DNA of 64,000 nt. Origin: Ignavibacteriaceae bacterium (GTDB lineage Bacteria > Bacteroidota > Ignavibacteria > Ignavibacteriales > Ignavibacteriaceae). Below are positions 35,835-56,114 of this stretch, one piece after another (within the stretch, counting starts at the first letter, position 1; each line of letters starts with the position of its first letter). The notes beneath the pieces were generated by a model, which was not told the DNA's origin, did not search any database, and saw only the letters and a list, made by a program, of their open reading frames with translations. A program made the translations under genes and the position numbers. The stretch is taken from positions 1,529 through 65,528 of the forward strand of contig JABWCL010000024.1 in assembly GCA_013360295.1 (NCBI GenBank), in the 5' to 3' direction.

Positions 35835-37745
35835 GTGACAATACCAGGCTCAGATACAAATTTTCGTTTTAGTGATATTCTCTACTATATAGTGCTTCCC
35901 ATACTCATCGGGCTGATATTTTTCGTTGAAGATACTGTCTTTAAAATATCTGCAATAGTGCTCGCGGTGGTCTATTCGGGTTTTATTATTAATAATTTCC
36001 TGAACCGGAGGAAACACACCAGGTTCGAAGTTGATGAAAAGGTGGTTCAGGAGGTTATGTCTCCGACTCTAAATGAGGAAACGATGGCAGAACCAAAAGC
36101 CCCCCGCCCTCTATCAGAAGTAGATGAGGGTTTCAGCGTTTTAAACCGTAACGCTAAACATTTCGGCGATATTATTGATGAATCTAATATTCTCATCGCG
36201 GGGAGCGTTAGAACACCTATCCGTCCGCCAGACTTAAAGAAGAAGTATGAAGAGATCGCGAATGAAGAATATCCTGAACACGTCCGCGAAAACGAACAGT
36301 TCCCATTTGTACTTGAGAAGATTCTGAGCGTTATTAAAGATGCTTACGAAGCTCATACTGCCATCTTTTTCTTTTATAACCGAAAAGAAAAAATGCTTGC
36401 GATTAAAAAGTATGTATCCAATTCAAAGGATATACTCGACATAAAATATGATCTTCTCGGAGGTATATTAACCAAGATTGTTACAGACGGTGAACCAGAG
36501 CTTTTGTCGGAGATTGTCCCGTCTTCTGAGACGGATAATATAATCTATTATAAAGCACCTCAGAAGATCAAGTGTTTTGTAGGTGTTCCTGTTTTTCATA
36601 AGAATAATCTGATTGGAATACTCGCGATTGATTCGCTGGTACAGGATCGTTATGGCATAGAGCATATTTATTCACTTGGCAAGTATGTAAGGCTTATCAC
36701 GATCCTCATCTCGCTTTTTGAAGAAAAGTATACCGAATCCACGGCAAAAAGGAGGCTCTCCGGTTTTGTCAATTTTATTGACCCGATGCTGAGCTATAAT
36801 TATGAAGCTGATATCGTAAACTCAATCGAACGGATCGTTCATAATTTTATTGAATTTAATGCATTCTCGCTTGTTTATTATCAGCCGGTACAGAAGAAAT
36901 TTTTTACGCTTAAGGTTGTAAATAAAATATCTACGCTCGAATACATTCCCGAGAACTTTGAAGTTGAACTGAAAGACACACTTGTCGGGAAGTGTATTAA
37001 CGCGGGTATCCCTCTTAAACTGTCCGACACATCAAATAATCAGTTCAAAAGGTTCGGCAAGAAAGAGAACGTAAAGTATGACGGCTCTTTCCTCGCTGTT
37101 CCGCTGATATTTAATAATATGACTTTTGGCGTGCTTTGTTTTGATCACGTGAAAAAGGGAGTCTATTCGCCTGATGACGTGAATTTTCTGAGAGGCGCTT
37201 CTAATCTCTTGGCGTTTTCGATATATTATTTGTCAACGACTGTACTGATAAAGAGCTTCATTTCAATTGACACGGTCACCAAACTGCTTAATAAAAAAAC
37301 TTTCCGTGAAAGAGCGGTTGACGATCACGTCAGGGTATTAACACTTAAGATACCTGCCGCTCTGGCTCTTATCAAAATTGATGATCATCAGAATGATGAA
37401 ACCCTGTTTGATGTAAACCCGGGATCAAAAATTGTTGAGACTGTCGCGGATGTACTCAGGGAGGAGATAAACCCTTTTATCACGGTCGGAATTACCGATG
37501 AGAACGAGTTCGGTGTTTTCATTTTTAATATGACTTCTTCCGACGCTCAGATCTGGGCTGATAAACTCAGGTTAAAGATTGCCCGTACACCTGTGCCGCT
37601 TGTTTCTAAGCAGATAACCACTACTGTATCAATCGGTGTAGCATCCGCGAATAAACCAAAGTTTGAAGAAGTGTTCAATAACGCCAGACAGGCATTATAC
37701 AACGCTGTGAAGAATGGCGGAAACAAAGTTCGAAATGTAAATTAA
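35835..37745 (+). CDS. Membrane-anchored GAF-GAF sensor protein with a degenerate GGDEF domain (DENEF in place of GGDEF)
   Basis: GTG start with N-terminal TM spans. Two GAF-like ends (LIGILAIDS..., FGVLCFDHVKKGVYSPDDVNFL...). The C-terminal GGDEF-fold pattern is ...LIKIDDH...ITDENEFGVFIF...TVSIGVAS...ALYNAVKNGGNKV. The active-site glycines and the GH..GD segment are missing. Confidence 0.7.
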   Translation: MTIPGSDTNFRFSDILYYIVLPILIGLIFFVEDTVFKISAIVLAVVYSGFIINNFLNRRKHTRFEVDEKVVQEVMSPTLNEETMAEPKAPRPLSEVDEGFSVLNRNAKHFGDIIDESNILIAGSVRTPIRPPDLKKKYEEIANEEYPEHVRENEQFPFVLEKILSVIKDAYEAHTAIFFFYNRKEKMLAIKKYVSNSKDILDIKYDLLGGILTKIVTDGEPELLSEIVPSSETDNIIYYKAPQKIKCFVGVPVFHKNNLIGILAIDSLVQDRYGIEHIYSLGKYVRLITILISLFEEKYTESTAKRRLSGFVNFIDPMLSYNYEADIVNSIERIVHNFIEFNAFSLVYYQPVQKKFFTLKVVNKISTLEYIPENFEVELKDTLVGKCINAGIPLKLSDTSNNQFKRFGKKENVKYDGSFLAVPLIFNNMTFGVLCFDHVKKGVYSPDDVNFLRGASNLLAFSIYYLSTTVLIKSFISIDTVTKLLNKKTFRERAVDDHVRVLTLKIPAALALIKIDDHQNDETLFDVNPGSKIVETVADVLREEINPFITVGITDENEFGVFIFNMTSSDAQIWADKLRLKIARTPVPLVSKQITTTVSIGVASANKPKFEEVFNNARQALYNAVKNGGNKVRNVN

Positions 37746-37760: not shown

Positions 37761-38921
37761 ATAAATAATCTTGCATTAATCGTTCTGGATGGGGTTGGCG
37801 CCGGTGAATTGCCGGACGCGGGGCTTTACAATGATAGAGGCAGCGACACTCTCGGTAATATCGCCCGCGCGGTAGGGGGTATTGACCTGCCTAATCTTAA
37901 ATCTCTGGGATTGGGAAATATAATTGATATTCCCGGAGTGCCCTATGTTTCCTTTCCTACCGCCGCTCACGGTAAAATGAAGGAACTATCGAAGGGGAAA
38001 GATTCCACGACTGGACATTGGGAACTAGCCGGGTTACCCGTTGAATTTGATTTCAGCTACTTCCCTGAAGGTTTCCCCACCAGTCTGATGATGACCTTTC
38101 TGAAGGAGACTGGCGTAAAGGGCTACCTCGGAAATATTGCCGCCTCTGGTACTGAGATAATTCAGACACTTGGTGATGAACACGTTAAAACAGGCTACCC
38201 GATTATTTATACTTCCGCTGACTCTGTTTTTCAGATCGCCGCTCACGAAGAAGTTATTCCTCTGAAAAGGCTGTATGAAATATGTACCATTACCCGGGAG
38301 AAAGTACTCACGGAGCCCTACAAAGTAGGCAGGGTGATTGCCCGTCCTTTCATTGGTGTCAAAGGCAATTACAAGCGTACTACTAACAGGCGTGATTTCT
38401 CAATGGATCCCCCGGATGATACGATCCTCGATATTCTTAAGGATAATGACATTACTACGATCTCTGTTGGTAAGGTTGATGACCTTTTCAATGGCAGAGG
38501 GATAATGATTAAAGAGCATACCAAGTCTAATCTTGAAGGATGCATAAAAATCCAGAATCTTCTTGGCAAACAAAAGAACAGTTTTATTTTTGCCAACCTG
38601 GTTGATTTTGATGTTTATTTTGGACACAGGAATGATGTTAAAGGCTTTGCGAACGCTTTAAAGGAATTTGACAGGTTCTTGCCGAAATTCCTCGAAAAAC
38701 TCGATGAGACTGATGCTCTTATACTTACCGCGGATCACGGCAATGACCCTACAACACCAAGCACCGACCACAGCAGGGAATATGTTCCTGTTCTCTATTA
38801 TCGCAAAGGGCATTTTGGGCGTGATATTGGGATAAGATCCTCTTTCGCGGATGTCGGGAAAACAATTGCAGATTTCTTCGGAGTTCAGAACTACCTTCAC
38901 GGAACAAGTTTTTATAAATGA
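37761..38921 (+). CDS. deoB: Phosphopentomutase; start codon uncertain (listed TTG at 37809 is too far downstream)
   Basis: Motifs GLGNIIDIPGV, TTGHWELAG, YTSADSVFQIAAHEE, LTADHGNDPT. The conserved N-terminal LALIVLDGVGAGELPDA is encoded in frame upstream of 37809. No ATG/GTG/TTG is available there, so 37761 (ATA) is a provisional 5' limit. Confidence 0.85.
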   Translation: MNNLALIVLDGVGAGELPDAGLYNDRGSDTLGNIARAVGGIDLPNLKSLGLGNIIDIPGVPYVSFPTAAHGKMKELSKGKDSTTGHWELAGLPVEFDFSYFPEGFPTSLMMTFLKETGVKGYLGNIAASGTEIIQTLGDEHVKTGYPIIYTSADSVFQIAAHEEVIPLKRLYEICTITREKVLTEPYKVGRVIARPFIGVKGNYKRTTNRRDFSMDPPDDTILDILKDNDITTISVGKVDDLFNGRGIMIKEHTKSNLEGCIKIQNLLGKQKNSFIFANLVDFDVYFGHRNDVKGFANALKEFDRFLPKFLEKLDETDALILTADHGNDPTTPSTDHSREYVPVLYYRKGHFGRDIGIRSSFADVGKTIADFFGVQNYLHGTSFYK

Positions 38922-38928
38922 TTGTACA

Positions 38929-39141
38929 ATGGAAGTAAATGGGACTGAAGAGGGGAGAGGTGAAGCCGATAACCCTGAGAATAAGCCAGCCCGGAAAGAA
39001 GGAGCGGCTGCCTTGATCAGTCAGGTACAGAACATACCCGCTGAAATTGCAGAAAAATTTCTCAATGCCAAAGGAATTCTGGCTGGGTCAGGAATTGATG
39101 AAAGGTTCAGGGAATGGCAGAGAAAAAATCTGAATTCCTGA
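38929..39141 (+). CDS. Hypothetical 70-aa protein overlapping the downstream PIN gene (possible antitoxin-like partner)
   Basis: The ATG at 38929 lies 8 nt after the deoB stop. There is a 28-nt overlap with the next ORF. No recognisable DNA-binding motif. The listed ORF start at 38851 lies inside deoB. Confidence 0.4.
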   Translation: MEVNGTEEGRGEADNPENKPARKEGAAALISQVQNIPAEIAEKFLNAKGILAGSGIDERFREWQRKNLNS

Positions 39142-39488
39142 TTGAGACGGACATTATTCTGGATTATCTAACGGGAAACGACTCGTCAGTTATTTCAGAG
39201 CTGATGACGGAAGGAACATGCTTTACATCCGTTTTTAATGTCAGTGAATTATACATGCATTGTCAGACGGAGACAGAACAGAATGCAGTCCGGGATGTGC
39301 TAAATGCCCTTCACATTCTTGGGATACCTGCCAGGTACGGATTATATACCGGCGAATACAGCGGTAAGTTCACCAATGTAAGGGATCAGCTTTTTTGCGT
39401 TCTTGCGGAGAAAGCAAATCTTACGATAGTAACAAAAGATTCGGAAAAGTACCGGGATACCGGATTAAATATTTATCAAAAAGTTTAA
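39114..39488 (+). CDS. PIN-domain protein (VapC-like)
   Basis: 124 aa. Acidic residues fall at PIN-typical positions: LIETDIILDYL (D13), SELY (about E45), RDQLFCVLAEKA (about D91), LTIVTKDSEKY (about D109). Confidence 0.55.
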   Translation: MAEKKSEFLIETDIILDYLTGNDSSVISELMTEGTCFTSVFNVSELYMHCQTETEQNAVRDVLNALHILGIPARYGLYTGEYSGKFTNVRDQLFCVLAEKANLTIVTKDSEKYRDTGLNIYQKV

Positions 39489-39500
39489 CAGGAAAATAAA

Positions 39501-39782
39501 TTGATCTTAGGCAGAATAATCGGTTCAGTGTGGGCTACTCGTAAAGATGACAGCCTCACAGGTTCAAAGCTCCTTATAGTAAAGCAGCTGGATCTCAAGC
39601 TGAATGAAAAGGAGAATTTTGTTGTAGCTGTTGACAGCGTCGGCGCAGGAGACGGTGAGGTGGTGCTTGTTGCTACGGGAAGCTCCGCCAGGCAGACTGC
39701 GATTACGAAAAACAAACCCGTTGACGCGGTAGTGATGGCGATTGTGGATAAATTAGACATCTCCTATCCCTCGAAAAGTTGA
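39501..39782 (+). CDS. EutN/CcmL-family protein (bacterial microcompartment vertex, BMC-P), paralogue 1
   Basis: TTG start, 93 aa. MILGRIIGSVWATRKDDSLTGSKLLIVKQLD...VVAVDSVGAGDGEVVLVATGSSARQ...KPVDAVVMAIVD aligns by eye along its whole length with E. coli EutN. Confidence 0.85.
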   Translation: MILGRIIGSVWATRKDDSLTGSKLLIVKQLDLKLNEKENFVVAVDSVGAGDGEVVLVATGSSARQTAITKNKPVDAVVMAIVDKLDISYPSKS

Positions 39783-39784
39783 GA

Positions 39785-39822
39785 ATTTCGCCTGAAATCG
39801 AATCATTCGGCGAATTTTTTAT
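39785..39822 (+). terminator. Candidate terminator between the two EutN-like genes
   Basis: TTCGCC (39787-39792) pairs with GGCGAA (39809-39814), followed by TTTTTT. The stem is short and the loop is 16 nt. Confidence 0.4.
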
Positions 39823-39825
39823 TCA

Positions 39826-39854
39826 TTGTATCGTAACTATTTTAACTCTATTTT
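39826..39854 (+). promoter_or_regulatory. Candidate promoter for the EutN-like-2 / sigma factor / NlpC-P60 unit
   Basis: TTGTAT (39826-39831), 17-nt spacer, TATTTT (39849-39854), about 29 nt upstream of the ATG at 39883. Confidence 0.3.
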
Positions 39855-39882
39855 TGCAAACTATTTTCTGTAAGAAATTCTA

Positions 39883-40167
39883 ATGTTTTTAGGACAAGTC
39901 ATCGGTAATATCTGGGCTACAAAAAAATATGAAGCCCTGCATAGTTTTAAGATGATGTTCGTCCAGCCGCTGAACAGTGAGTTCGAGAAACTCGGTGAAC
40001 CGATTGTTGCCATAGATACTGTTGGTTCGGGCCCGGGTGAATATATTTTATACATAACAGCCAGCGAGGCAGTAATTCCGCTGCCGGTGGATATGGCGCC
40101 GGTGGATGCTTCGATAGTCGCGGTTGTTGACTCAGTAAATATTGATAAATTAAGGAGAAATAATTAG
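39883..40167 (+). CDS. EutN/CcmL-family protein, divergent paralogue 2
   Basis: 94 aa. [30 protein letters not shown]...[23 protein letters not shown]...[12 protein letters not shown]. Same architecture as paralogue 1, but GSSAR is replaced by TASEA. Confidence 0.75.
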
Positions 40168-41021
40168 TGAGAATCACTAAACAATATACGAACAGGGAAA
40201 GCCAGTCTCTTGACAAATATCTTCAGGAGATCGGAAAAGTCGACCTTCTAACTCCCGATCAGGAAATTGAACTGGCGATCAGGATAAAGAAAGGGGATCA
40301 GACTGCGCTGGACGCACTGACCAAGGCAAATCTCCGCTTTGTGGTCAGCGTTGCCAAGCAGTATCAGAACCAGGGGCTGTCGCTTGGTGATTTGATCAAT
40401 GAAGGAAACCTCGGACTAATCAAGGCTGCAAAGCGATTTGATGAGACCAGAGGTTTTAAGTTCATCTCCTATGCAGTTTGGTGGATCAGACAGTCCATTC
40501 TTCAGGCTTTAGCTGAGCAGTCGAGAATAGTAAGGCTTCCACTTAACAGAGTTGGCGCGTTAAATAAAATCGGTAAAGCGTACAGTAACCTTGAACAGGA
40601 ATACGAACGCGAACCGAGCGCACAGGAACTCGCGCACGAGCTCGATATGGATGAGAATGAAGTAGCCGATACTCTGAAAATCTCCGGACGTCACGTCTCT
40701 ATGGACGCGCCTTTCGCGCAGGGTGAAGATAACAGGCTGCTTGATGTTCTTTCCAACGACCAGCAGCCATCACCGGATACAACACTGATGATCGAGTCGC
40801 TAAAGATGGAAATTGAACGCGCTCTTTCAACCCTGACCGAGAGAGAGGCTGAAGTTATAAGGCTTTACTTCGGACTGAATAAAGAGCATTCACTCACTCT
40901 TGAGGAGATTGGGGAGAGATTCAACCTGACCCGGGAGAGAGTGAGGCAAATCAAAGAGAAAGCGATCCGCAGGCTTCGCCACGCCTCCAGAAGTAAAAAC
41001 CTGAGAGCCTACCTGGGATAG
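40167..41021 (+). CDS. rpoD: RNA polymerase sigma-70 family factor, short primary-type (Bacteroidetes sigma-A-like, no region 1.1)
   Basis: The GTG start overlaps the upstream stop (TAGTG), with AAGGAG 10 nt upstream. N-terminus [23 protein letters not shown]. Region 2 is [39 protein letters not shown]...[13 protein letters not shown]. Region 4 is [29 protein letters not shown]. Confidence 0.85.
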
Positions 41022-41025
41022 CCTG

Positions 41026-41787
41026 TTGAAATTTGTATGTGAAATATTTGGCGGGCTCAGATCAGGAGCCCGTTTTAATTTAGCTGCTCTTATTCTTTTA
41101 TCCGCGCCGCTTTTTATCGCGCTTACCGGCTGCGCTCCCGTTACCTCAACCGCCCGCTACGGAGAAAAACCCAAAAGCGAACCCAGAAAAGAAACCGTAA
41201 CAGAACGTTATAAATCCCCCGACACAACTACTGTAAAACCGTCATTCGAAAACCCGGACCTGATTGACGAAGAGTCCGATACAGAGGACTATATCCCCTC
41301 CTCACAACGTATAAAAATCGAACAGGTGCTCGCGCAGTATGATACTTTGAAAAAGTACAAGTTCAGTGATCCCGCTCAGGCAAATTTTCTGGACAATATA
41401 TTTATGCAGATTATCAAATGGTATGAGACACCCTATAAGTATGGAGGCACCTCAACTAAGGGAATTGACTGTTCGGCATTTACACAGACGGTATACAAAA
41501 GCGCCTTCAATATTTCGCTTCTCAGGAGCGCCAGGGAACAATATACTCAGGGGACTGTGATTGATGATTTTGAAGATCTGGAACCGGGTGACCTGGTGTT
41601 TTTCAATACCCGCAGGCGTGTTCGCCCTGGGCACGTGGGCATTTATATTGGTGACCGTTTATTTGCTCACGCAAGTACGAAACTTGGTGTAACGGTCAGT
41701 TCTCTTGATGAGAATTATTACAATTCACGCTATATGGGTGCCAGAAGGGTCTTCGATCTCGCCACTGGTCAGCGCACCGGAAACTAG
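41026..41787 (+). CDS. NlpC/P60 (C40) family peptidoglycan endopeptidase lipoprotein
   Basis: TTG start. Lipobox-like LTGC. Catalytic region YGGTSTKGIDCSAFTQTVY...GDLVFFNT...PGHVGIYIGDRLFAHAS. Confidence 0.85.
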   Translation: MKFVCEIFGGLRSGARFNLAALILLSAPLFIALTGCAPVTSTARYGEKPKSEPRKETVTERYKSPDTTTVKPSFENPDLIDEESDTEDYIPSSQRIKIEQVLAQYDTLKKYKFSDPAQANFLDNIFMQIIKWYETPYKYGGTSTKGIDCSAFTQTVYKSAFNISLLRSAREQYTQGTVIDDFEDLEPGDLVFFNTRRRVRPGHVGIYIGDRLFAHASTKLGVTVSSLDENYYNSRYMGARRVFDLATGQRTGN

Positions 41788-42304: not shown

Positions 42305-44122
42305 ATGTTTATATATAAAATCCCCTCCATACTTTTGACGGTTATACTTCTTCAAATAAATATCTTTCCTGCAAACCGGTATGTTATAGCCGGTAATCCG
42401 ACTCCAATTCCCCCTTATACCAGTTGGGCAACTGCTTGTGATAGCATACAGAAGTGTATAGATATTTCAAATTCCGGAGACACGATCTTTGTTGGCGCCG
42501 GAGTATATAAAGAGAAAGTAGTATTAAAGCCGAGGCTTACGCTTATTGGTTCGGGAACAGACAGTTGTATCGTTGATATTTCTGTTTATCCTGAACCTCC
42601 CACCGGCGGGGACTATCATTATGCTTTTTCTGTAAAGGATTCTTGTACAATTAAAAATTTTTTCATAAAGGGTAAGTATGATGGAATGGATAATGGTTGG
42701 GTGGGTATAGGACGTCCTTCCTGGCCATGGCCAATGTTGAATGTGACTTATTTATTAGTTGAGAATAACCACTTTCATAAACTTGACGTAGCTGCCTCAC
42801 TGAATCACGGAATATTCAGAAAGAACCTGGTGACCAATAGTCTAAATGGTATTTCGTGTAACCCGTTTCCCAGCGCCGGGATTATCATAGTGGATTCAAA
42901 TCGCTTTAGTAATCTTGATTATGCATTATGCATAGGGGACGGATATGTAATTCTGAGGAATAATTTTATACACTTCCGCTCCGGAGGTGTGGTAACAGAA
43001 GTCTTTGAAGCGCATTTATACAGCAGAGTCTGGAACAATATCGCAATCAGAACTGACGGCAGGTTGTGTTATGAAACTTTTAACAGTAACGGTGATTTTA
43101 TAAATAATGTTATCTTTCTAAAATCCAAGTCCGTGTTTAATCCAAAATCAGCTACTGACTTATTCGTAAACAATGTAGTAATAGGGGCAGACAGCGGTGT
43201 TACCATCTCAGGCAGCGCATCAATAGATAATATTAAATACAACAACTTCTGGAAGGTAGGAAAACGATACGCTAATTTTGCAATAATCAACGACTCCACG
43301 AACCTATCGGTTGACCCTATGTTTGTCAAAGAGCACATATCTTGGGATACAGCATTCGGAGATTACCACCTGCAGAAGTTTTCTCTACTGATCGACAAAG
43401 GCGACCCAACAATCCTGGATCCAGACGGAACAAGAAGCGATGTAGGTACTTACGGTGGGCCCCTGGGAGAGATATATGCTTACCGCGATTACGCTCCAAA
43501 ACCTCCTGCCGGTATTATTCTTAGATATGACCCGAAATCAAAGATAGTTGAAGTAAAGTGGGAAAGAGCGACGGAGGCGGACTTCAGCAGGTACAATGTG
43601 TATAAGGATACTCTGTCCGGCTTTATTTCCGATAGCAGCAGAATTCTCCTCAGTACAATAGATACAAGCTTTTCAATGAGTTTAACTGGTTATCGAAAGA
43701 TATTTTTTAATATCCGGGTGGTTGACAAGCAGGGAAATATCAGTGAACCGGGGACGGAGACAGGCATAGTACTTACGGACACACAGCCAGAAAAGATTGT
43801 AACGGAACAATATAAGTTATATCCCAATTATCCAAACCCTTTCTCTTTCAAAACAACAATAGGTTACTATGTCTGCAAGCAAAGCTTTATTAAGATAATG
43901 GTCTATGACATAAAAGGAGAAATGATAGGCTATTTAGAAAACAGTGAGAGGGGAAAAGGCTATTATGAAGCTGAATTTACGGGGGCGAAACCGGCAACAG
44001 AAGAATTTGGTACTGAAACAGATTTTGTCAGCGGGATGTATATCTATAAGATTTTTATTATTGATAGTGAAACCGGAATACCAGTCTTCAGCCAGACCAG
44101 GAAGATGATGAGAGTAAAATAA
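42305..44122 (+). CDS. Secreted right-handed beta-helix repeat protein with an FN3-like module and T9SS C-terminal sorting domain
   Basis: Signal peptide. Repetitive N/G-rich beta-helix-like turns (NNxF/NNVI periodicity). The C-terminus reads YKLYPNYPNPFSFKTTIGY...GMYIYKIFI. Confidence 0.7.
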   Translation: MFIYKIPSILLTVILLQINIFPANRYVIAGNPTPIPPYTSWATACDSIQKCIDISNSGDTIFVGAGVYKEKVVLKPRLTLIGSGTDSCIVDISVYPEPPTGGDYHYAFSVKDSCTIKNFFIKGKYDGMDNGWVGIGRPSWPWPMLNVTYLLVENNHFHKLDVAASLNHGIFRKNLVTNSLNGISCNPFPSAGIIIVDSNRFSNLDYALCIGDGYVILRNNFIHFRSGGVVTEVFEAHLYSRVWNNIAIRTDGRLCYETFNSNGDFINNVIFLKSKSVFNPKSATDLFVNNVVIGADSGVTISGSASIDNIKYNNFWKVGKRYANFAIINDSTNLSVDPMFVKEHISWDTAFGDYHLQKFSLLIDKGDPTILDPDGTRSDVGTYGGPLGEIYAYRDYAPKPPAGIILRYDPKSKIVEVKWERATEADFSRYNVYKDTLSGFISDSSRILLSTIDTSFSMSLTGYRKIFFNIRVVDKQGNISEPGTETGIVLTDTQPEKIVTEQYKLYPNYPNPFSFKTTIGYYVCKQSFIKIMVYDIKGEMIGYLENSERGKGYYEAEFTGAKPATEEFGTETDFVSGMYIYKIFIIDSETGIPVFSQTRKMMRVK

Positions 44123-48751: not shown

Positions 48752-48872
48752 TCTGTTTCTAACTGGCGGCAGGTCCGGGTACTTAAATTACCGCTAATTA
48801 AGCCCGGCTGCCGTCTGTAAAAAAACCTTCCTCTTTCCCGGTATTTGAACTGATATTAAGCAGTATTTTTTT

Positions 48873-48897
48873 GGAACAATTCGTTTGTCCGAGCGTC
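48873..48897 (+). promoter_or_regulatory. Candidate ECF-type autoregulatory promoter (GGAAC-N16-CGTC)
   Basis: GGAAC (48873-48877), 16-nt spacer, CGTC (48894-97). The ATG of the ECF sigma gene follows 6 nt later. Confidence 0.4.
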
Positions 48898-48903
48898 AAA
48901 ATA

Positions 48904-49497
48904 ATGAATAACAAACAAAAACCTGAAATGCCCATTACACAGACAGTTTTTACTCTTGATGACGATTTTTCGCTTATCAATGCCTTTAATGACGGTGACC
49001 AGTCGGCCTTTTCCAGGCTTGTATCCAGGCATAAGGAAAAAGTCAGGAACCTGATCTACGCCACGCTAGGCGACGCGAGGAATGTTGAGGATATTTCCCA
49101 GGAAGTTTTTATAATTGTTTATCACAAGCTGCATACTTTCCGCTTCCAGTCCCGGTTTACCACCTGGCTTTACCGCATTACAATCAATAAATGTAAGGAT
49201 CATCTCCGCAGGGTAAAATTGCGGAGTATCTTCACCTATCTTCACAGTGAAGATGCCGAGAAAGTTACCGTCAGTTCGTCAGAGAGTTTTGATATAAAGC
49301 AAGTAGTCCGTGAGGCTGTTAACAGGTTACCAGAAAAACTCCGTTACCCTCTCATCCTCAGAGATTTTGAAGGATGTAGCTATGAAGAGATAGCGGATGT
49401 TTTGGAGACGGAAATCGGCACTGTAAAATCAAGGATTTTCAGAGCACGTGAATTTCTAAAAAAAGACCTCGAACCATTGAAAAACGAACTATTATGA
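48904..49497 (+). CDS. ECF-subfamily RNA polymerase sigma factor
   Basis: Region 2 is FSRLVSRHKEKVRNLIYATLGD...EDISQEVFIIVYHKL..F....FTTWLYRITINKCKD. Region 4 is EGCSYEEIADVLETEIGTVKSRIFRARE. The listed TTG at 48871 is a less likely start. Confidence 0.88.
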   Translation: MNNKQKPEMPITQTVFTLDDDFSLINAFNDGDQSAFSRLVSRHKEKVRNLIYATLGDARNVEDISQEVFIIVYHKLHTFRFQSRFTTWLYRITINKCKDHLRRVKLRSIFTYLHSEDAEKVTVSSSESFDIKQVVREAVNRLPEKLRYPLILRDFEGCSYEEIADVLETEIGTVKSRIFRAREFLKKDLEPLKNELL

Positions 49498-51173
49498 AAA
49501 TTACGAATAAAATACTTGAAAATCTTTCAGCTTACCTCGATGGTGAGCTGACCCCGGAGGAAAGATTCGAGACAGAGGAACTGCTGAAATCTTCTCCGCA
49601 GATACAGGAAGAGTACCAGAAGATCAAATCATTGAAGGATGCTATTAATAATTTCAAACCTCTTCCTCCGGACGAGTACTTCGAGACTCGCCTTGCACCG
49701 AAACTTAAAACCGGATATAATTTTTTGGATAAGTACAGGATACCCAGGCCGGCGATTTTATTTGCCGGTGCGACGGTCATTCTGATGATATTACTTCAAT
49801 CAGGCTCTGATTTCTTTGAAGAATGGTTCTCACAGGGAAAGAGCGGACTTGAGTCATTTTACTCAAAAAACCTGACTTCACTTCTGATGGCGGCTGATCT
49901 TACCAATGAGGATCTTTTTGATTTCGCTTTCAACAAGAACCTTCCTCTTGACGAAACTGGGAATAAGGTATTAGCGATCGGAACGGATGAGACAGGTAAG
50001 GAATTCCTCGAAGTTAAATACGCCGGGGCAGTGCAGCCGGGGTTAAAGCTGAATGATTTTTATCGCCAATTTAACCTTAACCAGGAACAGCAGAATAAAG
50101 TTGATTCGATACTCGACAGTTATTCAGACAGGCTTGCGTCAGTCGTACTAGTCAATGATAAGAATACGATAGCAGTAAATCCGGAACTCTGGAGGTACCA
50201 CAGCAGGCTGCGTCAGGATCTCCTTGCATATGCGTCATCTGTCAACCGGGAAGCGGTAGTTACAGCGTTCGGAGGAGAATCGGAGTTTAATGATCTTATG
50301 CGCGAGCCTGAACCTATGCCTGTGCCTGTGATGCCGGCTTCTGCCGAAAATTACTATTTCATTACTCCCGATTCTATTTTCTTTTCCAGGGCGGTGGTAG
50401 ATGAGAACAGAATTCAGAACGACATCGCCAGGATCAGAAAGAGAGTAAAATCCGTTTCTGAAGATGATAGAATCAGGTTAGACCTTTCTCCGGTTTTTTC
50501 TGAACAGGGTGAGTTAACCAAATCCGGAAGTATGCGTGTTATGATAAACGATAACTCCATCCGGGTGGTTATTCCGGAAAATATTTCACCGCTCGAAAAA
50601 AACCGTGATCTTGAGAAACTGGCGTCTAAGCTTGACAGTGCTTTCAAACAGCTTAAGAAAAAGAATATGGAGTTCAAATTTGATATGCCTCCGGTAGCAG
50701 GCAGTGAATTCCGTGTGAACGTAAGAACGGAAGGGAGGAGCGGGAGAGCTTCATACAGCTACGGTTATGACGCTCCTGATATGGTAATCATTAAAAAGGA
50801 TTCCATAAAAAAAATAAAACCGCTTGATTCCGTTTTTATTTCAAAGCAATTCCGGGAAACGCATTTCCCGGATTCAATGTCCGTTGAGAAACTGCAAAAA
50901 CTCGCGGACAGTCTATCGAAAAAATTTGGGAAGGACAGCCAGTGGTTCAATAATCAGCCTGATCTCGATCAGTTTTTCCGCGATAACTTTGCTGATACAT
51001 CGAGGATTTTCAAAGATCGTTTACGCGAGGAGATGAGGCAGGAGTGGCTGCTCTTCCGTAAGGAGATGAACCGGCTGCGCGAAGAGATGAGGAGATTCCG
51101 GGAAGATTTAAATCCTCAGAAGAAAAAGCAAGAAGCGGAACCGATCGAAATACGTTATAATATCGAGACCTAG
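49494..51173 (+). CDS. Putative anti-sigma factor: N-terminal anti-sigma helix, one TM, large extracytoplasmic domain
   Basis: 4-nt ATGA overlap with the ECF sigma gene. N-terminus LSAYLDGELTPEERFETEELL. A TM lies around aa 85-105. The Arg/Glu-rich C-terminus reads LREEMRQEWLLFRKEMNRLREEMRRFRE. Confidence 0.65.
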   Translation: MKITNKILENLSAYLDGELTPEERFETEELLKSSPQIQEEYQKIKSLKDAINNFKPLPPDEYFETRLAPKLKTGYNFLDKYRIPRPAILFAGATVILMILLQSGSDFFEEWFSQGKSGLESFYSKNLTSLLMAADLTNEDLFDFAFNKNLPLDETGNKVLAIGTDETGKEFLEVKYAGAVQPGLKLNDFYRQFNLNQEQQNKVDSILDSYSDRLASVVLVNDKNTIAVNPELWRYHSRLRQDLLAYASSVNREAVVTAFGGESEFNDLMREPEPMPVPVMPASAENYYFITPDSIFFSRAVVDENRIQNDIARIRKRVKSVSEDDRIRLDLSPVFSEQGELTKSGSMRVMINDNSIRVVIPENISPLEKNRDLEKLASKLDSAFKQLKKKNMEFKFDMPPVAGSEFRVNVRTEGRSGRASYSYGYDAPDMVIIKKDSIKKIKPLDSVFISKQFRETHFPDSMSVEKLQKLADSLSKKFGKDSQWFNNQPDLDQFFRDNFADTSRIFKDRLREEMRQEWLLFRKEMNRLREEMRRFREDLNPQKKKQEAEPIEIRYNIET

Positions 51174-51547: not shown

Positions 51548-53629
51548 TTGAAGTTCTCATTAGGTTCATATAGAATAATAGCCGGCACAAAGCTGCAGTA
51601 TCTGATCGTACCGCTCCTTATATGGTTTTTTGTCAAATTGCTTGCACCGGTTAAAGAAGGCTGGCTCTATTATATTCTTGGGGATCTGGCAGGTGTTGCA
51701 GCAGGGTATATCATTTTTGTCTCAATGGGAAGAGTTAAACTACTTAAATCCTATACTCCCACTGCCAGGGTTATAAGTGTCGGGATCGCGGGATTGTTAC
51801 TCATAATCGGCATCAATCTATATGATTTCATAATTTCAGGTAATGTTGCCAATTCTCCGTCTGAAATCCTTGAGGGATCAAGATTATATACACTCATTGA
51901 TTTTATTTTCAGTATAGTTTTTCTGGTAATAGGCTCATTCATCCTTGTGATGCTTATGGAGTTGTATTATCTGAAATCCAGGCAGGCACGCCGCACTTAC
52001 TTTAACGCGATGCTTGTTTTTATAACTCTATCGTGCCTGACGGCGTTTCTTAACAGGGCAGAATATGAATCATTAAAATTTATAAATCTTGCTTTCACTG
52101 TAAACGCGTTCATTCTTGTAAGTTTTAATTCATTCCGGATGGCGTGGATCGCGTTCCTTAATAAAGTCGAAAAGCAGCGGCTGATTCTTTATTCCATTTT
52201 GCTTGTGATTTTGTTCGGACTGCTGACTGACAGCATTCTCGAAACATCTTCCGCTACTGAATCAATGAAAGAGTTCTCAATGGCGCTGAAGTTTTACCTT
52301 ATGTTTGGAGTGCTGTACGGACTAATCTTTTTCAGTATTTTATTTTTTACAGCACTGTTTCACCTTCCGACGGCTGAAGCAATCGACAGGAAGACAAAAG
52401 AATTTACATCGTTCCAGTACCTGAGCAAACTGATAAACCAGGTTCTCGATTTTAAGGAACTGAGTTTAACAATTACGGAACTTGCAACCCAGATCTCAGG
52501 TTCGGAAGCCGCGTGGCTTCTAATGCATAATGACCAGACGCTAACGCCCGTCGCGCCTAAGAATATCGGGTTCATCGAAGCCGATAAGTTCAGAAAAGAG
52601 CTTGAGGACGCGGGATGGAAAAGAGATAATGTTGAAATTAAATATTTGAGCCTGGCTGCTAATCCTTCTGAAACGAAATCAGGCGAGAGATATCAGCACG
52701 CGGTATCCGTGCCGCTCCGATCGCATAATAACGTAAATGCTACACTGGTAATTTTGAAAAAAGGGAGTTTTGGATTTGACCAGGAAGACAGGTCAGCTAT
52801 CGAGACATTCTCAGATTACGCGTCGATCGCGCTGGAAAATTCAAGGCTTCTCCAGGAATCAATAGAGAAAGAACGCCTTGAGAAAGAACTCGATGTTGCA
52901 CGTGAGATGCAAAGGCGCCTGATACCTGCGGAAATACCTAAGGTCACCGGGCTGGATATATCCGCTGTTTTTATTCCCGCGTTTGAAGTCGGTGGTGATT
53001 ATTATGACTTTTTCGAAATGAGCAGCGGAAGGTTTGGTTTTGTTGTGGGGGATGTTTCGGGGAAAGGAATCTCCGCCGCGTTCATTATGGCGGAGCTTCG
53101 CGGCGTATTTGAATCTCTCAGCAGGCTGATAAACGATCCGAGAGAGATATTAATCAACGCGAATGATATACTCAGAAAATCGCTTGGAAGCAGCAGTTTC
53201 GTTACTGTGGCATTTGGTATTTATGACAGAGCACATTCAAAAGTGTATCTCGTCCGGGCAGGACACACTCCAATACTCTATGCAAATGGAAACGGAGTTG
53301 AAGACCTGCGCCCCGCGGGAATCGGGCTAGGCCTCAATTATTCTCATATATTCACCAATTCTCTTGAGACGATTGAACTGAACCTGAAAGATGACGATGT
53401 GCTGGTTGTCTTTACAGACGGAATTACAGAGGCAAAAAATTCGAAAATGGAAGACTTCGGGCTGCCAAGGCTGAAGGAGATCATATCGGACACGCGCGCT
53501 GAAAGCGCCCAGGAAATTACAAATAAGATCATTCACGATGTGACTGTGTACTCTGAGTCGAGTCCGCAGCACGACGATATAACACTATTAATTCTAAAAG
53601 TAAAAAATTTAAATAACCGGAGTAATTAG
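51548..53629 (+). CDS. Multi-TM sensor / GAF / SpoIIE (PP2C-type, RsbU-like) serine phosphatase
   Basis: TTG start, about 8 TM spans. GAF end ...FSDYASIALENSRLLQE. PP2C region AREMQRRLIP...GGDYYDFF...VVGDVSGKGISAAFIMA...TDGITEA...DDITLLILKV. Confidence 0.85.
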   Translation: MKFSLGSYRIIAGTKLQYLIVPLLIWFFVKLLAPVKEGWLYYILGDLAGVAAGYIIFVSMGRVKLLKSYTPTARVISVGIAGLLLIIGINLYDFIISGNVANSPSEILEGSRLYTLIDFIFSIVFLVIGSFILVMLMELYYLKSRQARRTYFNAMLVFITLSCLTAFLNRAEYESLKFINLAFTVNAFILVSFNSFRMAWIAFLNKVEKQRLILYSILLVILFGLLTDSILETSSATESMKEFSMALKFYLMFGVLYGLIFFSILFFTALFHLPTAEAIDRKTKEFTSFQYLSKLINQVLDFKELSLTITELATQISGSEAAWLLMHNDQTLTPVAPKNIGFIEADKFRKELEDAGWKRDNVEIKYLSLAANPSETKSGERYQHAVSVPLRSHNNVNATLVILKKGSFGFDQEDRSAIETFSDYASIALENSRLLQESIEKERLEKELDVAREMQRRLIPAEIPKVTGLDISAVFIPAFEVGGDYYDFFEMSSGRFGFVVGDVSGKGISAAFIMAELRGVFESLSRLINDPREILINANDILRKSLGSSSFVTVAFGIYDRAHSKVYLVRAGHTPILYANGNGVEDLRPAGIGLGLNYSHIFTNSLETIELNLKDDDVLVVFTDGITEAKNSKMEDFGLPRLKEIISDTRAESAQEITNKIIHDVTVYSESSPQHDDITLLILKVKNLNNRSN

Positions 53630-53980
53630 ATGTCAGAATTTTTCACAAATTTAAAAGAGAACGGCACTGTAAATATAGTGGAGCTGGGAGGGTATCTCGA
53701 TGCTCACACCGCGCCCCAGCTTGAAAATGTATTCTCGGATCTGATAAAGAGTAAGAGGTTCAATGTTGTGGTAAACTTTGAACAGCTGAACTATATCAGC
53801 AGCGCCGGTCTCGGTGTTTTTATGGCATTCATCGAAACGATGAGGGAGAACAGCGGGGATATAAAACTCGCCGCCATGAAACCGAATGTTTACAATATAT
53901 TCGATCTTCTGGGCTTTCCGCTTCTCTACGAAATATTTAATTCAGAAAACGAAGCCATCGATAAATTTATAAAGCAATGA
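53630..53980 (+). CDS. STAS-domain anti-sigma-factor antagonist (RsbV/SpoIIAA-like)
   Basis: 116 aa. LDAHTAPQLE...LNYISSAGLGVFMAF, with a conserved phosphorylatable Ser context. The ATG directly follows the upstream TAG. Confidence 0.88.
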   Translation: MSEFFTNLKENGTVNIVELGGYLDAHTAPQLENVFSDLIKSKRFNVVVNFEQLNYISSAGLGVFMAFIETMRENSGDIKLAAMKPNVYNIFDLLGFPLLYEIFNSENEAIDKFIKQ

Positions 53981-53992
53981 AATCTTAAAGCC

Positions 53993-54427
53993 GTGGAAAA
54001 TACAAAACAAAAAACTTTCGAACTCAGCGTTAGGAGCACTACAGAAGAGCTCTCGGCGATCCGGGATTTCATAAGGCAGAGTATTTCTCCTGCAGGAATA
54101 ACGGATGAAGCTATGGATAAAATCATCCTGGCCGTTGATGAAGCTTCTACGAATGTTGTAAAGCACGCATACCACTACGCGAAAGATAAAGAGATCAAAA
54201 TTCAGCTTGAACTGAAATCCGAATCGTGCGTGGTAACCATAACCGATTTTGGCGATTCCTTTGATCCGAATGAAATCCCCCAGCCGAATATGAAGCAGTA
54301 CCTGGAGGAAAAGAGGGTCGGCGGGCTGGGCCTTTATCTTATGCGCACACTTATGGATGAGGTGCAGTATACTTCGTATGACGGTAAATACAATAAATTA
54401 GTATTAATTAAAAAAATATCTGCCTGA
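53993..54427 (+). CDS. RsbW/SpoIIAB-like serine protein kinase / anti-sigma regulatory factor (HATPase_c)
   Basis: GTG start. N-box AVDEASTNVVKHAY, G1-like ITDFGDSFD, G2 GGLGLYLMRTLMDEV. Confidence 0.85.
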   Translation: MENTKQKTFELSVRSTTEELSAIRDFIRQSISPAGITDEAMDKIILAVDEASTNVVKHAYHYAKDKEIKIQLELKSESCVVTITDFGDSFDPNEIPQPNMKQYLEEKRVGGLGLYLMRTLMDEVQYTSYDGKYNKLVLIKKISA

Positions 54428-54428
54428 G

Positions 54429-56114
54429 ATGCCGCACTCTTCTGAAGATATCCGTATTAAAAGAAACCTGACCGCGCTGGTGGAATTCAGCCGTGCCGTC
54501 AACTCGAGCCTAAGTATGGACTTTACACTGAACAACCTTCTCCTTAGTTGTTTTGGAAAGTTCCTTACGACAAAAGGATTCGTGGCTATTAACTCAAACG
54601 GGTTTCTGACTCCGGTCGTACTTAAGGGTATTAACAAAGAAGAACTGGAAGCATTTCCAAAAATTCCGGCTGAGAATACCGATGATTCAAAAGCGATGAT
54701 GAGGTCATTTGTAAAGGAGAACAATCTTAAATTATGTGAGCCGATAGTTTCTTCGAGGGGGCTGCTGGGCTGTATTGTGCTCGGGGAAAAAATAAATAAA
54801 TCTGATTATACGGAAGACGAAGTTGATTTCTTACGCACTATCTTAGGCATTGCCGCGACATCAATTGAGAATTCATTGTTTGTTGATGAACTGCGCGGGT
54901 TGAACAGGGACCTTGACAAAAGGCTTAACAGGTTAAGTTCGCTGTTTGAACTGAGCAAAGAATTCGGCGCGTTAATTGAAGAAGAGAGGATAAGCAGGCT
55001 ATTAGTCTATTCTCTTCTTGGCAATTTCCTGGTTTCATCGTACGCGATATGCTACCTTGAAGACAAAAAACTGAAAGTGATCGAATCAACCGTTCCGAAA
55101 CAACCGGTCCTGGATTATCTCGGAACCATTAATCTTCAGTCTGTTACGAATCCCGTAAGCGGCGAAAACCTGACAGCATCTTTCGAGCCGCTCTCGAGGC
55201 TGAAAATTAATCTCATTATTCCGATGAAGTACCAGAATGAAACGCGGGGGTTGATTCTTCTGGGTAAGCGGATGAATCTCGCGGAGTATTCTGATGCGGA
55301 TATCGAGTTTATTACCTCAGTAGGTAACCTTGCTATAATGTCTCTTGAAAACAGAAGACTGTTTAAGGAAGCCCTCGAAAAACAGCGGCTTGAAGAAGAA
55401 CTGGAGATCGCGAAAGATATCCAGAGAAACCTGCTTCCGAAAAATCTCCCTCAGTTCGAAGAATATGATATCGCGGCAATGACAGTCCCCTCAAAGCAGG
55501 TGGGGGGAGACTACTACGATATAATATCCACTGCCGGAGAAGATGTTTATCTGGCGATTGCCGACGTTTCAGGGAAAGGCGTCCCTGCGTCTTTACTGAT
55601 GGCAAACCTGCAGGCTTTTTTGAAATCCATTACCATACAGAACTTGGGCCTTTCAGACGCAACCGGGCTTTTGAATAATCTGGTAACAGAGAACACCTCC
55701 GAAGGACGTTTTATTACTTTCTTCTGGTGTAAACTTTTAAGGAACGAAAAGAAACTTATTTATGTCAACGCCGGACATAATCCTCCTTTACTTATTAGGA
55801 ATAATAAACTGCAATATCTTGATAAGGGGGGAATGATATTCGGGGTAATGAAGACCTTTGTCCCCTACGCGGAGGAGATTATTGAGCTGCAATCCGGAGA
55901 TCTGCTTGTGCTTTTCACAGACGGTGTAACCGAAGCGAAGAACCGCTTTGACAGGGAATTTACTGACGAGAAACTTGAAACGCTGATGCTCGGAGTCAAG
56001 GGCGAAATGAAGGCAGGCGAGATAATGAATATGATTAAGTCCGAAATTGATACATATGTTGAGGGCTTTCCTCAGTCGGACGATATTACAATGATCGTGG
56101 TGAAGGTAAAATAG
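54429..56114 (+). CDS. Cytoplasmic GAF-GAF / SpoIIE (PP2C-type) serine phosphatase
   Basis: No TM spans. Two GAF ends (...LGIAATSIENSLFVDEL; ...VGNLAIMSLENRRLFKE). PP2C region AKDIQRNLLP...GGDYYDII...IADVSGKGVPASLLMA...TDGVTEA...DDITMIVVKV. Confidence 0.85.
   Translation: MPHSSEDIRIKRNLTALVEFSRAVNSSLSMDFTLNNLLLSCFGKFLTTKGFVAINSNGFLTPVVLKGINKEELEAFPKIPAENTDDSKAMMRSFVKENNLKLCEPIVSSRGLLGCIVLGEKINKSDYTEDEVDFLRTILGIAATSIENSLFVDELRGLNRDLDKRLNRLSSLFELSKEFGALIEEERISRLLVYSLLGNFLVSSYAICYLEDKKLKVIESTVPKQPVLDYLGTINLQSVTNPVSGENLTASFEPLSRLKINLIIPMKYQNETRGLILLGKRMNLAEYSDADIEFITSVGNLAIMSLENRRLFKEALEKQRLEEELEIAKDIQRNLLPKNLPQFEEYDIAAMTVPSKQVGGDYYDIISTAGEDVYLAIADVSGKGVPASLLMANLQAFLKSITIQNLGLSDATGLLNNLVTENTSEGRFITFFWCKLLRNEKKLIYVNAGHNPPLLIRNNKLQYLDKGGMIFGVMKTFVPYAEEIIELQSGDLLVLFTDGVTEAKNRFDREFTDEKLETLMLGVKGEMKAGEIMNMIKSEIDTYVEGFPQSDDITMIVVKVK

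Follow-up and report, generated by a model that had tools for sequence, protein, structure and literature searches.

Among the bacterial microcompartment (BMC) locus types catalogued by Sutter et al. 2021 (Nat Commun 12:3809, PMC8217296), those termed FRAG have their shell genes at up to six places, for the most part far from enzyme genes, and include a triplet of genes for the vertex protein BMC-P. Ignavibacteriae are listed among the FRAG hosts in the same work (PMC8217296). According to its supplement, FRAG1 comprises 57 shell-protein-only loci, is most prominent in Ignavibacteria and occurs also in Kryptonia. It has the BMC-P triplet, two BMC-H genes and often a PduS/PduT pair, and neither a cargo nor an encapsulation peptide is known (PMC8217296). 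Seven BMC-P genes in five loci were found in Melioribacter roseus (Axen et al. 2014). Here we describe two adjacent BMC-P genes, P1 and P2, and the gene of a primary-type sigma factor, sigA, that directly follows them in 64,000 nucleotides of DNA from an Ignavibacteriaceae bacterium (assembly GCA_013360295.1, contig JABWCL010000024.1, positions 1,529 to 65,528 of the forward strand). This whole stretch is called the window below, and coordinates are counted from its first nucleotide. The P1/P2 pair is best read as part of the catalogued FRAG1 set of dispersed shell genes. The proteins and the type of locus are already known; the fixed, operon-like attachment of P1 and P2 to sigA across two phyla appears to be undescribed. 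The three genes are:

39501 to 39782, plus strand: P1, BMC-P paralogue 1 of the GSSARQT type, 93 amino acids (aa), TTG start, PF03319
39883 to 40167, plus strand: P2, BMC-P paralogue 2 of the S/A-x-E-A subclade, 94 aa, ATG start, PF03319
40167 to 41021, plus strand: sigA, primary-type sigma factor without region 1.1, 284 aa, Pfam regions 1.2, 2, 3 and 4

Both vertex genes match the EutN_CcmL family, PF03319, over its entire length (profile positions 1-83 of 83). The match has an E-value of 2.7e-31 (108.4 bits) for P1 and of 1.2e-24 (87.0 bits) for P2, the gathering cut-off being 25 bits. A preliminary description of this DNA had assigned both open reading frames (ORFs) to this family from short motifs, and these motifs, GxxWAT(R/K)K, DxVGxGxGE and PVDAxxxAxVD, are indeed present in the two translations. 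The best solved relative of P1 is the shell pentamer 5V74 of Haliangium ochraceum, which is 51% identical (E 8e-22). By sequence match the closest solved structures to P2 are GrpN and the H. ochraceum pentamer, at E about 1e-11.

P1 was compared by sequence only, and the fold of P2 was predicted for the monomer with AlphaFold2. An alignment of 125 diverse sequences gave a model with a pLDDT (predicted local distance difference test) of 90.5; the model made from 19 close orthologues had a pLDDT of 46.6 and was unusable. All 47 Protein Data Bank matches of the P2 model at E<=0.001 are BMC-P proteins, with template modelling (TM) scores of up to 0.85. Comparison with the pentameric GrpN structure 4I7A gave TM scores of 0.83/0.93 and a root-mean-square deviation of 1.2 Å. 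As judged by sequence for P1 and by the predicted fold for P2, both are real vertex (BMC-P) proteins, and a pentameric, shell-capping assembly would be expected of them.

The sigma factor is of the primary (group 1) type by its domain content, and a housekeeping status is predicted, in line with the classification first given to it. Among NCBIfam models, those for RpoD match it best, with about 300 bits. These scores lie below the full-length cut-offs because the protein has no long N-terminal region. Two related loci encode sigma proteins identical to entries that IMG and NCBI call "RNA polymerase primary sigma factor" or "RpoD/SigA", from Ca. Kryptobacter tengchongensis and Ca. Kryptonium thompsonii. 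No other gene of the block is as conserved as sigA, which is 75-99% identical across loci. Since Ignavibacterium album has 16 sigma genes, the protein could nevertheless be a sigma paralogue. A primary sigma factor naturally without region 1.1 is known from Bacteroides fragilis; it resembles the present protein in its length of about 285 aa, in having regions 1.2 to 4 and in lacking an acidic N-terminal region. No report was found that the Bacteroides gene follows BMC-P genes.

Ignavibacteriota and Ca. Kryptoniota (Kryptonia, a separate phylum in NCBI) provided 165 loci in which the arrangement was compared. Denominators are the loci with enough sequence to be scored. The genome loci are the best 80 of 455 species genomes, and 80 further metagenome loci were seeded with outgroups that are 46-52% identical. 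The genes follow each other in the order GAF-GGDEF / (deoB) / (PIN) / P1 / P2 / sigA / NlpC-P60. In all of the best 80 genome loci this string (GGDEF / deoB / (PIN) / P1 / P2 / sigma / NlpC) lies on one strand, and all 80 metagenome loci have P1-P2-sigma. The sigma gene comes after P2 in 140/140 loci and P1 precedes P2 in 148/148. The GGDEF gene is present in 102/102, the NlpC/P60 gene in 117/124, deoB in 103/114 and the PIN gene in 37/126.

Nine public contigs carry an exact copy of P2 among the same neighbouring genes. The complete chromosomes OY762937.1 and OY759785.1 contain the block as well. The gene order is the same around P2 orthologues at 72-80% identity on long contigs, including those in which something other than the ribosomal operon lies upstream, and the P1-P2-sigma block is intact where the flanks differ. 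In distant relatives (46-52% identical) the string reads GGDEF / small ORF / P1 / P2 / sigma / NlpC, without deoB. The preliminary description had held that its proposal would fall if the adjacency to the sigma gene were not conserved in relatives; the adjacency is found in every scorable locus of both phyla. It had also stated that no described functional link between EutN-fold proteins and the primary sigma factor was known, and text searches of the literature found no paper connecting BMC-P genes or vertex proteins with a sigma factor.

Three loci with the P1-P2-sigA block tie it to the catalogue. They come from the genomes CG_4_9_14_3_um_filter_30_11 (L074), BMS3Abin03 (L076) and CG1_02_37_35 (L094). 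All three genomes are labelled FRAG1 (sat) in the BMC-T tree of PMC8217296, with PduT-like (PF00936) shell proteins of 181-184 aa at satellite sites. The window shares with FRAG1 its taxa, as the DNA is from Ignavibacteriaceae and the related loci are from Ignavibacteria and Kryptonia. It also shares the placement of shell genes away from BMC enzymes and at several sites, and the presence of several BMC-P paralogues. In the 64 kb the two BMC-P genes stand alone with no BMC enzymes adjoining, and two of the three sequence types of the triplet are present. According to the catalogue, the rest of the FRAG1 shell would be encoded elsewhere on the chromosome, by genes for a third BMC-P, two BMC-H and one PduT-like BMC-T.

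The locus differs from the published account in its neighbours. The text and supplements of the catalogue, as distinct from its locus diagrams, which are images and were not read, make no mention of sigma factor, phosphopentomutase, GGDEF or NlpC/P60 genes beside FRAG1 shell genes. The fixed P1-P2-sigA order is an added observation for this reason. A satellite BMC-P pair of H. ochraceum is similar in that adjacent BMC-P genes lie away from the main shell locus (PMC8217296); that pair adjoins an aldolase and not a sigma factor.

Searches of the window with PduA, EutM, CcmK2 and CsoS1A (tblastn) revealed no BMC-H or BMC-T gene, all matches having E>1, and tblastn of the flanks of about 165 related loci found no BMC-H up to 10 kb away. 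Aldehyde dehydrogenase, phosphotransacylase, glycyl radical enzyme, RuBisCO, DeoC and RpiB domains were absent from the large ORFs of the window in Pfam scans, the small ORFs at about 20-29 kb not having been scanned singly. The original remark that shell hexamer or trimer genes and signature enzymes are missing from the 64 kb is thus upheld at the scale of the window. The word "orphan", which was attached to the pair at the same time, holds for the window only: scattered shell genes are the FRAG1 arrangement, and the three block-bearing genomes are listed with PF00936 proteins elsewhere (PMC8217296). A search with the BMC-H of H. ochraceum was uninformative about absence, as each of the best 120 of 8000 matches listed shared at least 82% identity with the query and none was named Ignavibacteria.

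P2 had been described as divergent, having TASEA at the place that corresponds to GSSAR in P1. The two translations do differ in this way. However, the nearest full-length relatives of P2, 43-53% identical, have an S/A-x-E-A motif where the P1 type has GSSAR. There are 817 homologues of P2, and 455 genomes were found to encode a P2 relative in a scan of one genome per species. P2 is 47-88% identical across the loci; a stretch of 14 residues is almost invariant among orthologues, and the C-terminal half is near-invariant. By this comparison TASEA is the conserved signature of a widespread BMC-P subclade, a trait of the clade rather than decay, and the subclade is part of the known BMC-P triplet.

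The triplet can be seen in a Planctomycetota locus. It has a P1-like gene (61% identical to P1, GSSARQT), RpiB, a P2-like gene (ITAREAV) and a gene of a third type (GGGAR...IPIQA), then DeoC, a phosphomutase and a nucleoside phosphorylase. Because the three types occur side by side there, P1 and P2 can be assigned by sequence to two members of the triplet, P1 being the standard GSSAR type. The idea that the catalogue's "grey + orange" pair corresponds to P1 and P2 was dropped; P1 is closest to the standard H. ochraceum pentamer and to the GSSAR member of the Planctomycetota triplet. The triplet has been described in the BMC literature, in which the role of three BMC-P paralogues is considered unexplained and an additional role is suspected (PMC8217296; PMC11585597).

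The junction between P2 and sigA is as tight as first described, with the sigma gene as the downstream cistron. The signals at this junction and in the gap between P1 and P2 are:

40152 to 40157, plus strand: Shine-Dalgarno sequence AAGGAG, read from the sequence
40165 to 40169, plus strand: TAGTG, stop/start overlap of P2 and sigA, read from the sequence
39780 to 39821, plus strand: weak terminator-like hairpin, T-run at 39815-39820, -12.4 kcal/mol, z -1.7
39825 to 39856, plus strand: candidate Bacteroidetes-type promoter ATTG-N20-TATTTTTG, a pattern match

The TAG stop codon of P2 (40165-40167) shares its G with the GTG start codon of sigA (40167-40169), and AAGGAG is situated inside P2, 9 nucleotides (nt) before the GTG. 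Aligned N-termini of orthologues support this start. A GAGG-like Shine-Dalgarno sequence is also a recurrent feature of the orthologous sigma genes, whose start is GTG or TTG, not ATG, in 116/161 aligned cases. As GAGG-like sequences precede most sigA starts, Ignavibacteria seem to be users of Shine-Dalgarno sequences, unlike Bacteroidia. The gap between P2 and the sigma gene has a median of 17 nt and is <=25 nt in 107/161 loci. An overlap of one nucleotide between stop and start together with a ribosome-binding site inside P2 is a layout of translational coupling, and coupling is predicted here.

The signals between P1 and P2 are less convincing. The preliminary description had placed a hairpin and a promoter in this gap. 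The hairpin is real and weak: 9/200 shuffled sequences fold as well, a simple terminator scan does not call it, and it is not conserved outside the closest relatives. The sigma-70-type promoter candidate (39779-39806) has 9/12 matches, which is no more than shuffled sequences give, and a scan for sigma-70 consensus promoters and terminators gave nothing above shuffles. Both signals are lineage-specific, and the unit does not seem to have one fixed promoter. The motif TAnnTTTG occurs in the P1-P2 gap in 13/58 loci (5.4 expected), 35-53 nt before P2 and only in the subclade of the window. In half of the loci the P1-P2 gap is <=25 nt, which suggests that the transcription unit starts further upstream there; the whole range is -4 to 342 nt. 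No known RNA element was found between 35.0 and 42.5 kb with Rfam.

Taken together, P1 and P2 are probably FRAG1 vertex genes held in an old, fixed string of genes, with sigA most likely co-transcribed with P2. A common mRNA of P2 and sigA is suggested by the anatomy of the genes, because the sigma gene begins 0-25 nt after P2 in most species, a spacing too short for a terminator and a promoter. Given the weak GTG start, the 1-nt overlap and the Shine-Dalgarno sequence within P2, the translation of sigA would most likely be coupled to that of P2 in the present genome. If the mRNA is indeed shared with a housekeeping sigma factor, the vertex proteins would be made constitutively alongside it and not be induced by a substrate. 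Such expression is unusual for catabolic microcompartments. It has been raised as a possible reason for the dispersal of shell genes (Axen et al. 2014).

Several points weigh against this interpretation. The presence of BMC-H, BMC-T and a third BMC-P elsewhere in the genome is taken from the catalogue and is not a direct demonstration. A search for the third BMC-P type with the Planctomycetota protein as query gave 70 matches and did not find it in Ignavibacteria, in a type of search that needs shared words. A promoter for sigA may lie inside the coding sequence of P2, and very old synteny of housekeeping genes can persist without a functional link. Finally, the close spacing of P2 and the sigma gene is not universal, as the gap exceeds 60 nt in 21/161 loci, although some of these wide gaps depend on starts set by alignment only.

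We regard one alternative as unlikely, although it is the best of those considered: P1 and P2 would be ordinary FRAG1 genes in an ancient neighbourhood, a promoter of its own, situated within P2 or ahead of it, would account for most of the expression of sigA, and the adjacency would have no regulatory or functional meaning. The whole string is kept, including the unrelated GGDEF and NlpC/P60 genes, and in many species it follows the rpoA-L17 operon, as would be expected of a frozen housekeeping region. The loci with wide P2-sigma gaps would also fit, as would the variable P1-P2 gap with its lineage-specific promoter-like motifs. On the other hand, the P2-sigma gap is short in two thirds of the loci, mostly with a weak GTG or TTG start and a Shine-Dalgarno sequence that falls within P2 or immediately behind it, and these features speak for a shared transcript. 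In the 220 nt upstream of sigA the -7 motif TAnnTTTG shows no enrichment (17 loci, 13.9 expected), and the block survives changes of the flanking genes. If the adjacency were frozen synteny only, the present description would be a useful annotation note and little more.

A stronger version of the co-transcription of P2 and sigA can be envisaged for both phyla, in which P2 is a leader cistron on whose transcription and translation the synthesis of sigma A depends, or in which P2 has a second role with the transcription machinery. We consider this doubtful. If true, it would tie vertex proteins to housekeeping gene expression and might give the first functional handle on the three BMC-P paralogues and on the purpose of FRAG1.

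It is still less probable that P1, P2 or both were recruited for a second, non-shell role, for example by binding sigma A or RNA polymerase or by acting with the GGDEF and NlpC/P60 proteins. Such a role would account for the genes staying attached to sigA in all scorable loci of Ignavibacteriota and Kryptoniota. It would agree with the very strong conservation of P2, with its near-invariant C-terminal half, with the lack of a known FRAG1 cargo or encapsulation peptide, and with the suspicion in the field that three BMC-P paralogues have an additional role (PMC8217296; PMC11585597). However, the interaction is purely hypothetical, normal vertex proteins have the same fold and the same family-wide motifs, DxVGxGxGE and PVDAxIVxxVD, and the P2 subclade is found in conventional loci resembling the sugar-phosphate-utilising (SPU) type in Planctomycetota without a sigma gene. 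That the hexamer genes were lost or never present, the pair being a relic or forming pentamer-only structures, is very improbable: no PF00936 gene was found in the window or within 10 kb of the related loci, and no Ignavibacteria BMC-H was among the best 120 of 8000 matches listed, but such a list cannot show absence, P1 and P2 are both strongly conserved, and the catalogue lists PF00936 proteins for the three block-bearing genomes and gives two BMC-H as typical of FRAG1 (PMC8217296).

The interpretation of P1 and P2 as FRAG1 vertex genes in a fixed string with sigA bears on two questions of the field, namely what the enzyme-less FRAG compartments do and why many compartments should have three vertex paralogues. 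Twelve pentamers suffice per compartment. In this whole branch of the FCB group, two of the three have a fixed place immediately before the primary sigma gene, which argues for constitutive over substrate-induced expression. I. album has been cultured, and a metagenome-assembled genome of this species (L086) carries the block. M. roseus is another cultured species.

A lead on the function of FRAG1 comes from the gene string and from the relatives of P2. The genes that flank P1, P2 and sigA in the window are:

35835 to 37745, plus strand: GAF-GGDEF protein, first gene of the string, Pfam GAF_2 and GGDEF
37809 to 38921, plus strand: deoB, phosphopentomutase, NCBIfam NF003766, 499.9 bits against a cut-off of 256
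38866 to 39141, plus strand: 91-aa ORF, putative antitoxin (by position only), called as a gene in identical public contigs
39114 to 39488, plus strand: PIN-domain protein, variable insert between deoB and P1, Pfam PIN, E 1.7e-5
41026 to 41787, plus strand: NlpC/P60 cell-wall endopeptidase, last gene of the string, Pfam NLPC_P60, E 1.8e-28

The upstream gene had been recognised from the outset as deoB, and its score is well above the cut-off. A weaker suggestion made at that time, that this neighbour recalls microcompartments utilising sugar phosphates, has gained support, since the closest relatives of P2 outside the FCB group (53% identical) are found in RpiB/DeoC (SPU-like) loci. The P2-like genes of Planctomycetota lie with RpiB, DeoC, a phosphomutase, a nucleoside phosphorylase and three BMC-P types, and deoB adjoins the P1/P2 block in most of the loci studied here. 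The step catalysed by DeoB supplies deoxyribose-5-phosphate, a proposed SPU substrate (PMC11585597). The window differs from SPU loci in that DeoC aldolase (PF01791), RpiB (PF02502) and aldehyde dehydrogenase were not found in it, and the Kryptonia-type blocks (for example L098 and L105-L108) are without deoB. The adjacency of deoB in most Ignavibacteria and the SPU-like relatives of P2 are hence a hint and no demonstration, and they allow a testable guess at the substrate of FRAG1.

A Planctomycetota contig (L185, 9014-14882) has, in this order, BMC-P, RpiB, two further BMC-P genes, two ORFs without a Pfam match, a DeoC aldolase, a phosphomutase of the PGM/PMM family and a nucleoside phosphorylase. 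There is no BMC-H within 10 kb. This locus resembles a pathway from nucleosides to deoxyribose phosphate beside a vertex-protein triplet.

The 91-aa ORF and the PIN gene (38866-39488) have a toxin-antitoxin-like layout between deoB and P1. Homologues of the PIN protein, 26-60% identical, are in the same slot in the loci counted above (among them L018, L026, L043, L124 and L139), so the insert is recurrent or old and not a single event. The 91-aa ORF has no match in Pfam, NCBIfam or PADLOC, and PADLOC found no defence system among the PIN protein, the 91-aa ORF, P1 and P2. In Kryptonia-type blocks deoB is replaced directly upstream of P1 by a conserved ORF of 63-67 aa (L098, 9454-9645; L103, 760-963), which has no family match.

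The first 35 kb of the window contain nusG, L1, rpoB, rpoC, EF-G, EF-Tu, ribosomal protein genes, secY, map and rpoA, and then a GTPase gene. Thus rpoB, rpoC, rpoA and sigA lie within about 33 kb on one strand (7729-41021). The GGDEF-to-NlpC block directly follows rpoA-L17-GTPase in many relatives and not in others. In one locus (L177) a short second sigma match (12388-12495, 94% over about 36 aa) is present 1.2 kb downstream of the full sigma gene, and the NlpC/P60 gene is displaced by about 6 kb, suggesting a local rearrangement or insertion.

Downstream of the NlpC/P60 gene there is an ORF of 605 aa (42305-44122), which has no Pfam match and is also present in an identical public contig (L001). 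Further downstream are a class II ribonucleotide reductase, an extracytoplasmic-function (ECF) sigma factor and a partner-switching module. The ECF sigma factor gene (48871-49497) overlaps by 4 nt an ORF of 559 aa without a Pfam match; the pair (48871-51173) has a sigma/anti-sigma-like layout. The partner-switching module (51548-58658) has three GAF/PDZ-SpoIIE (PP2C) phosphatases, at 51548-53629, 54429-56114 and 56115-58658. Between these lie an anti-anti-sigma protein of the STAS type (53630-53980) and a kinase resembling RsbW (53993-54427).

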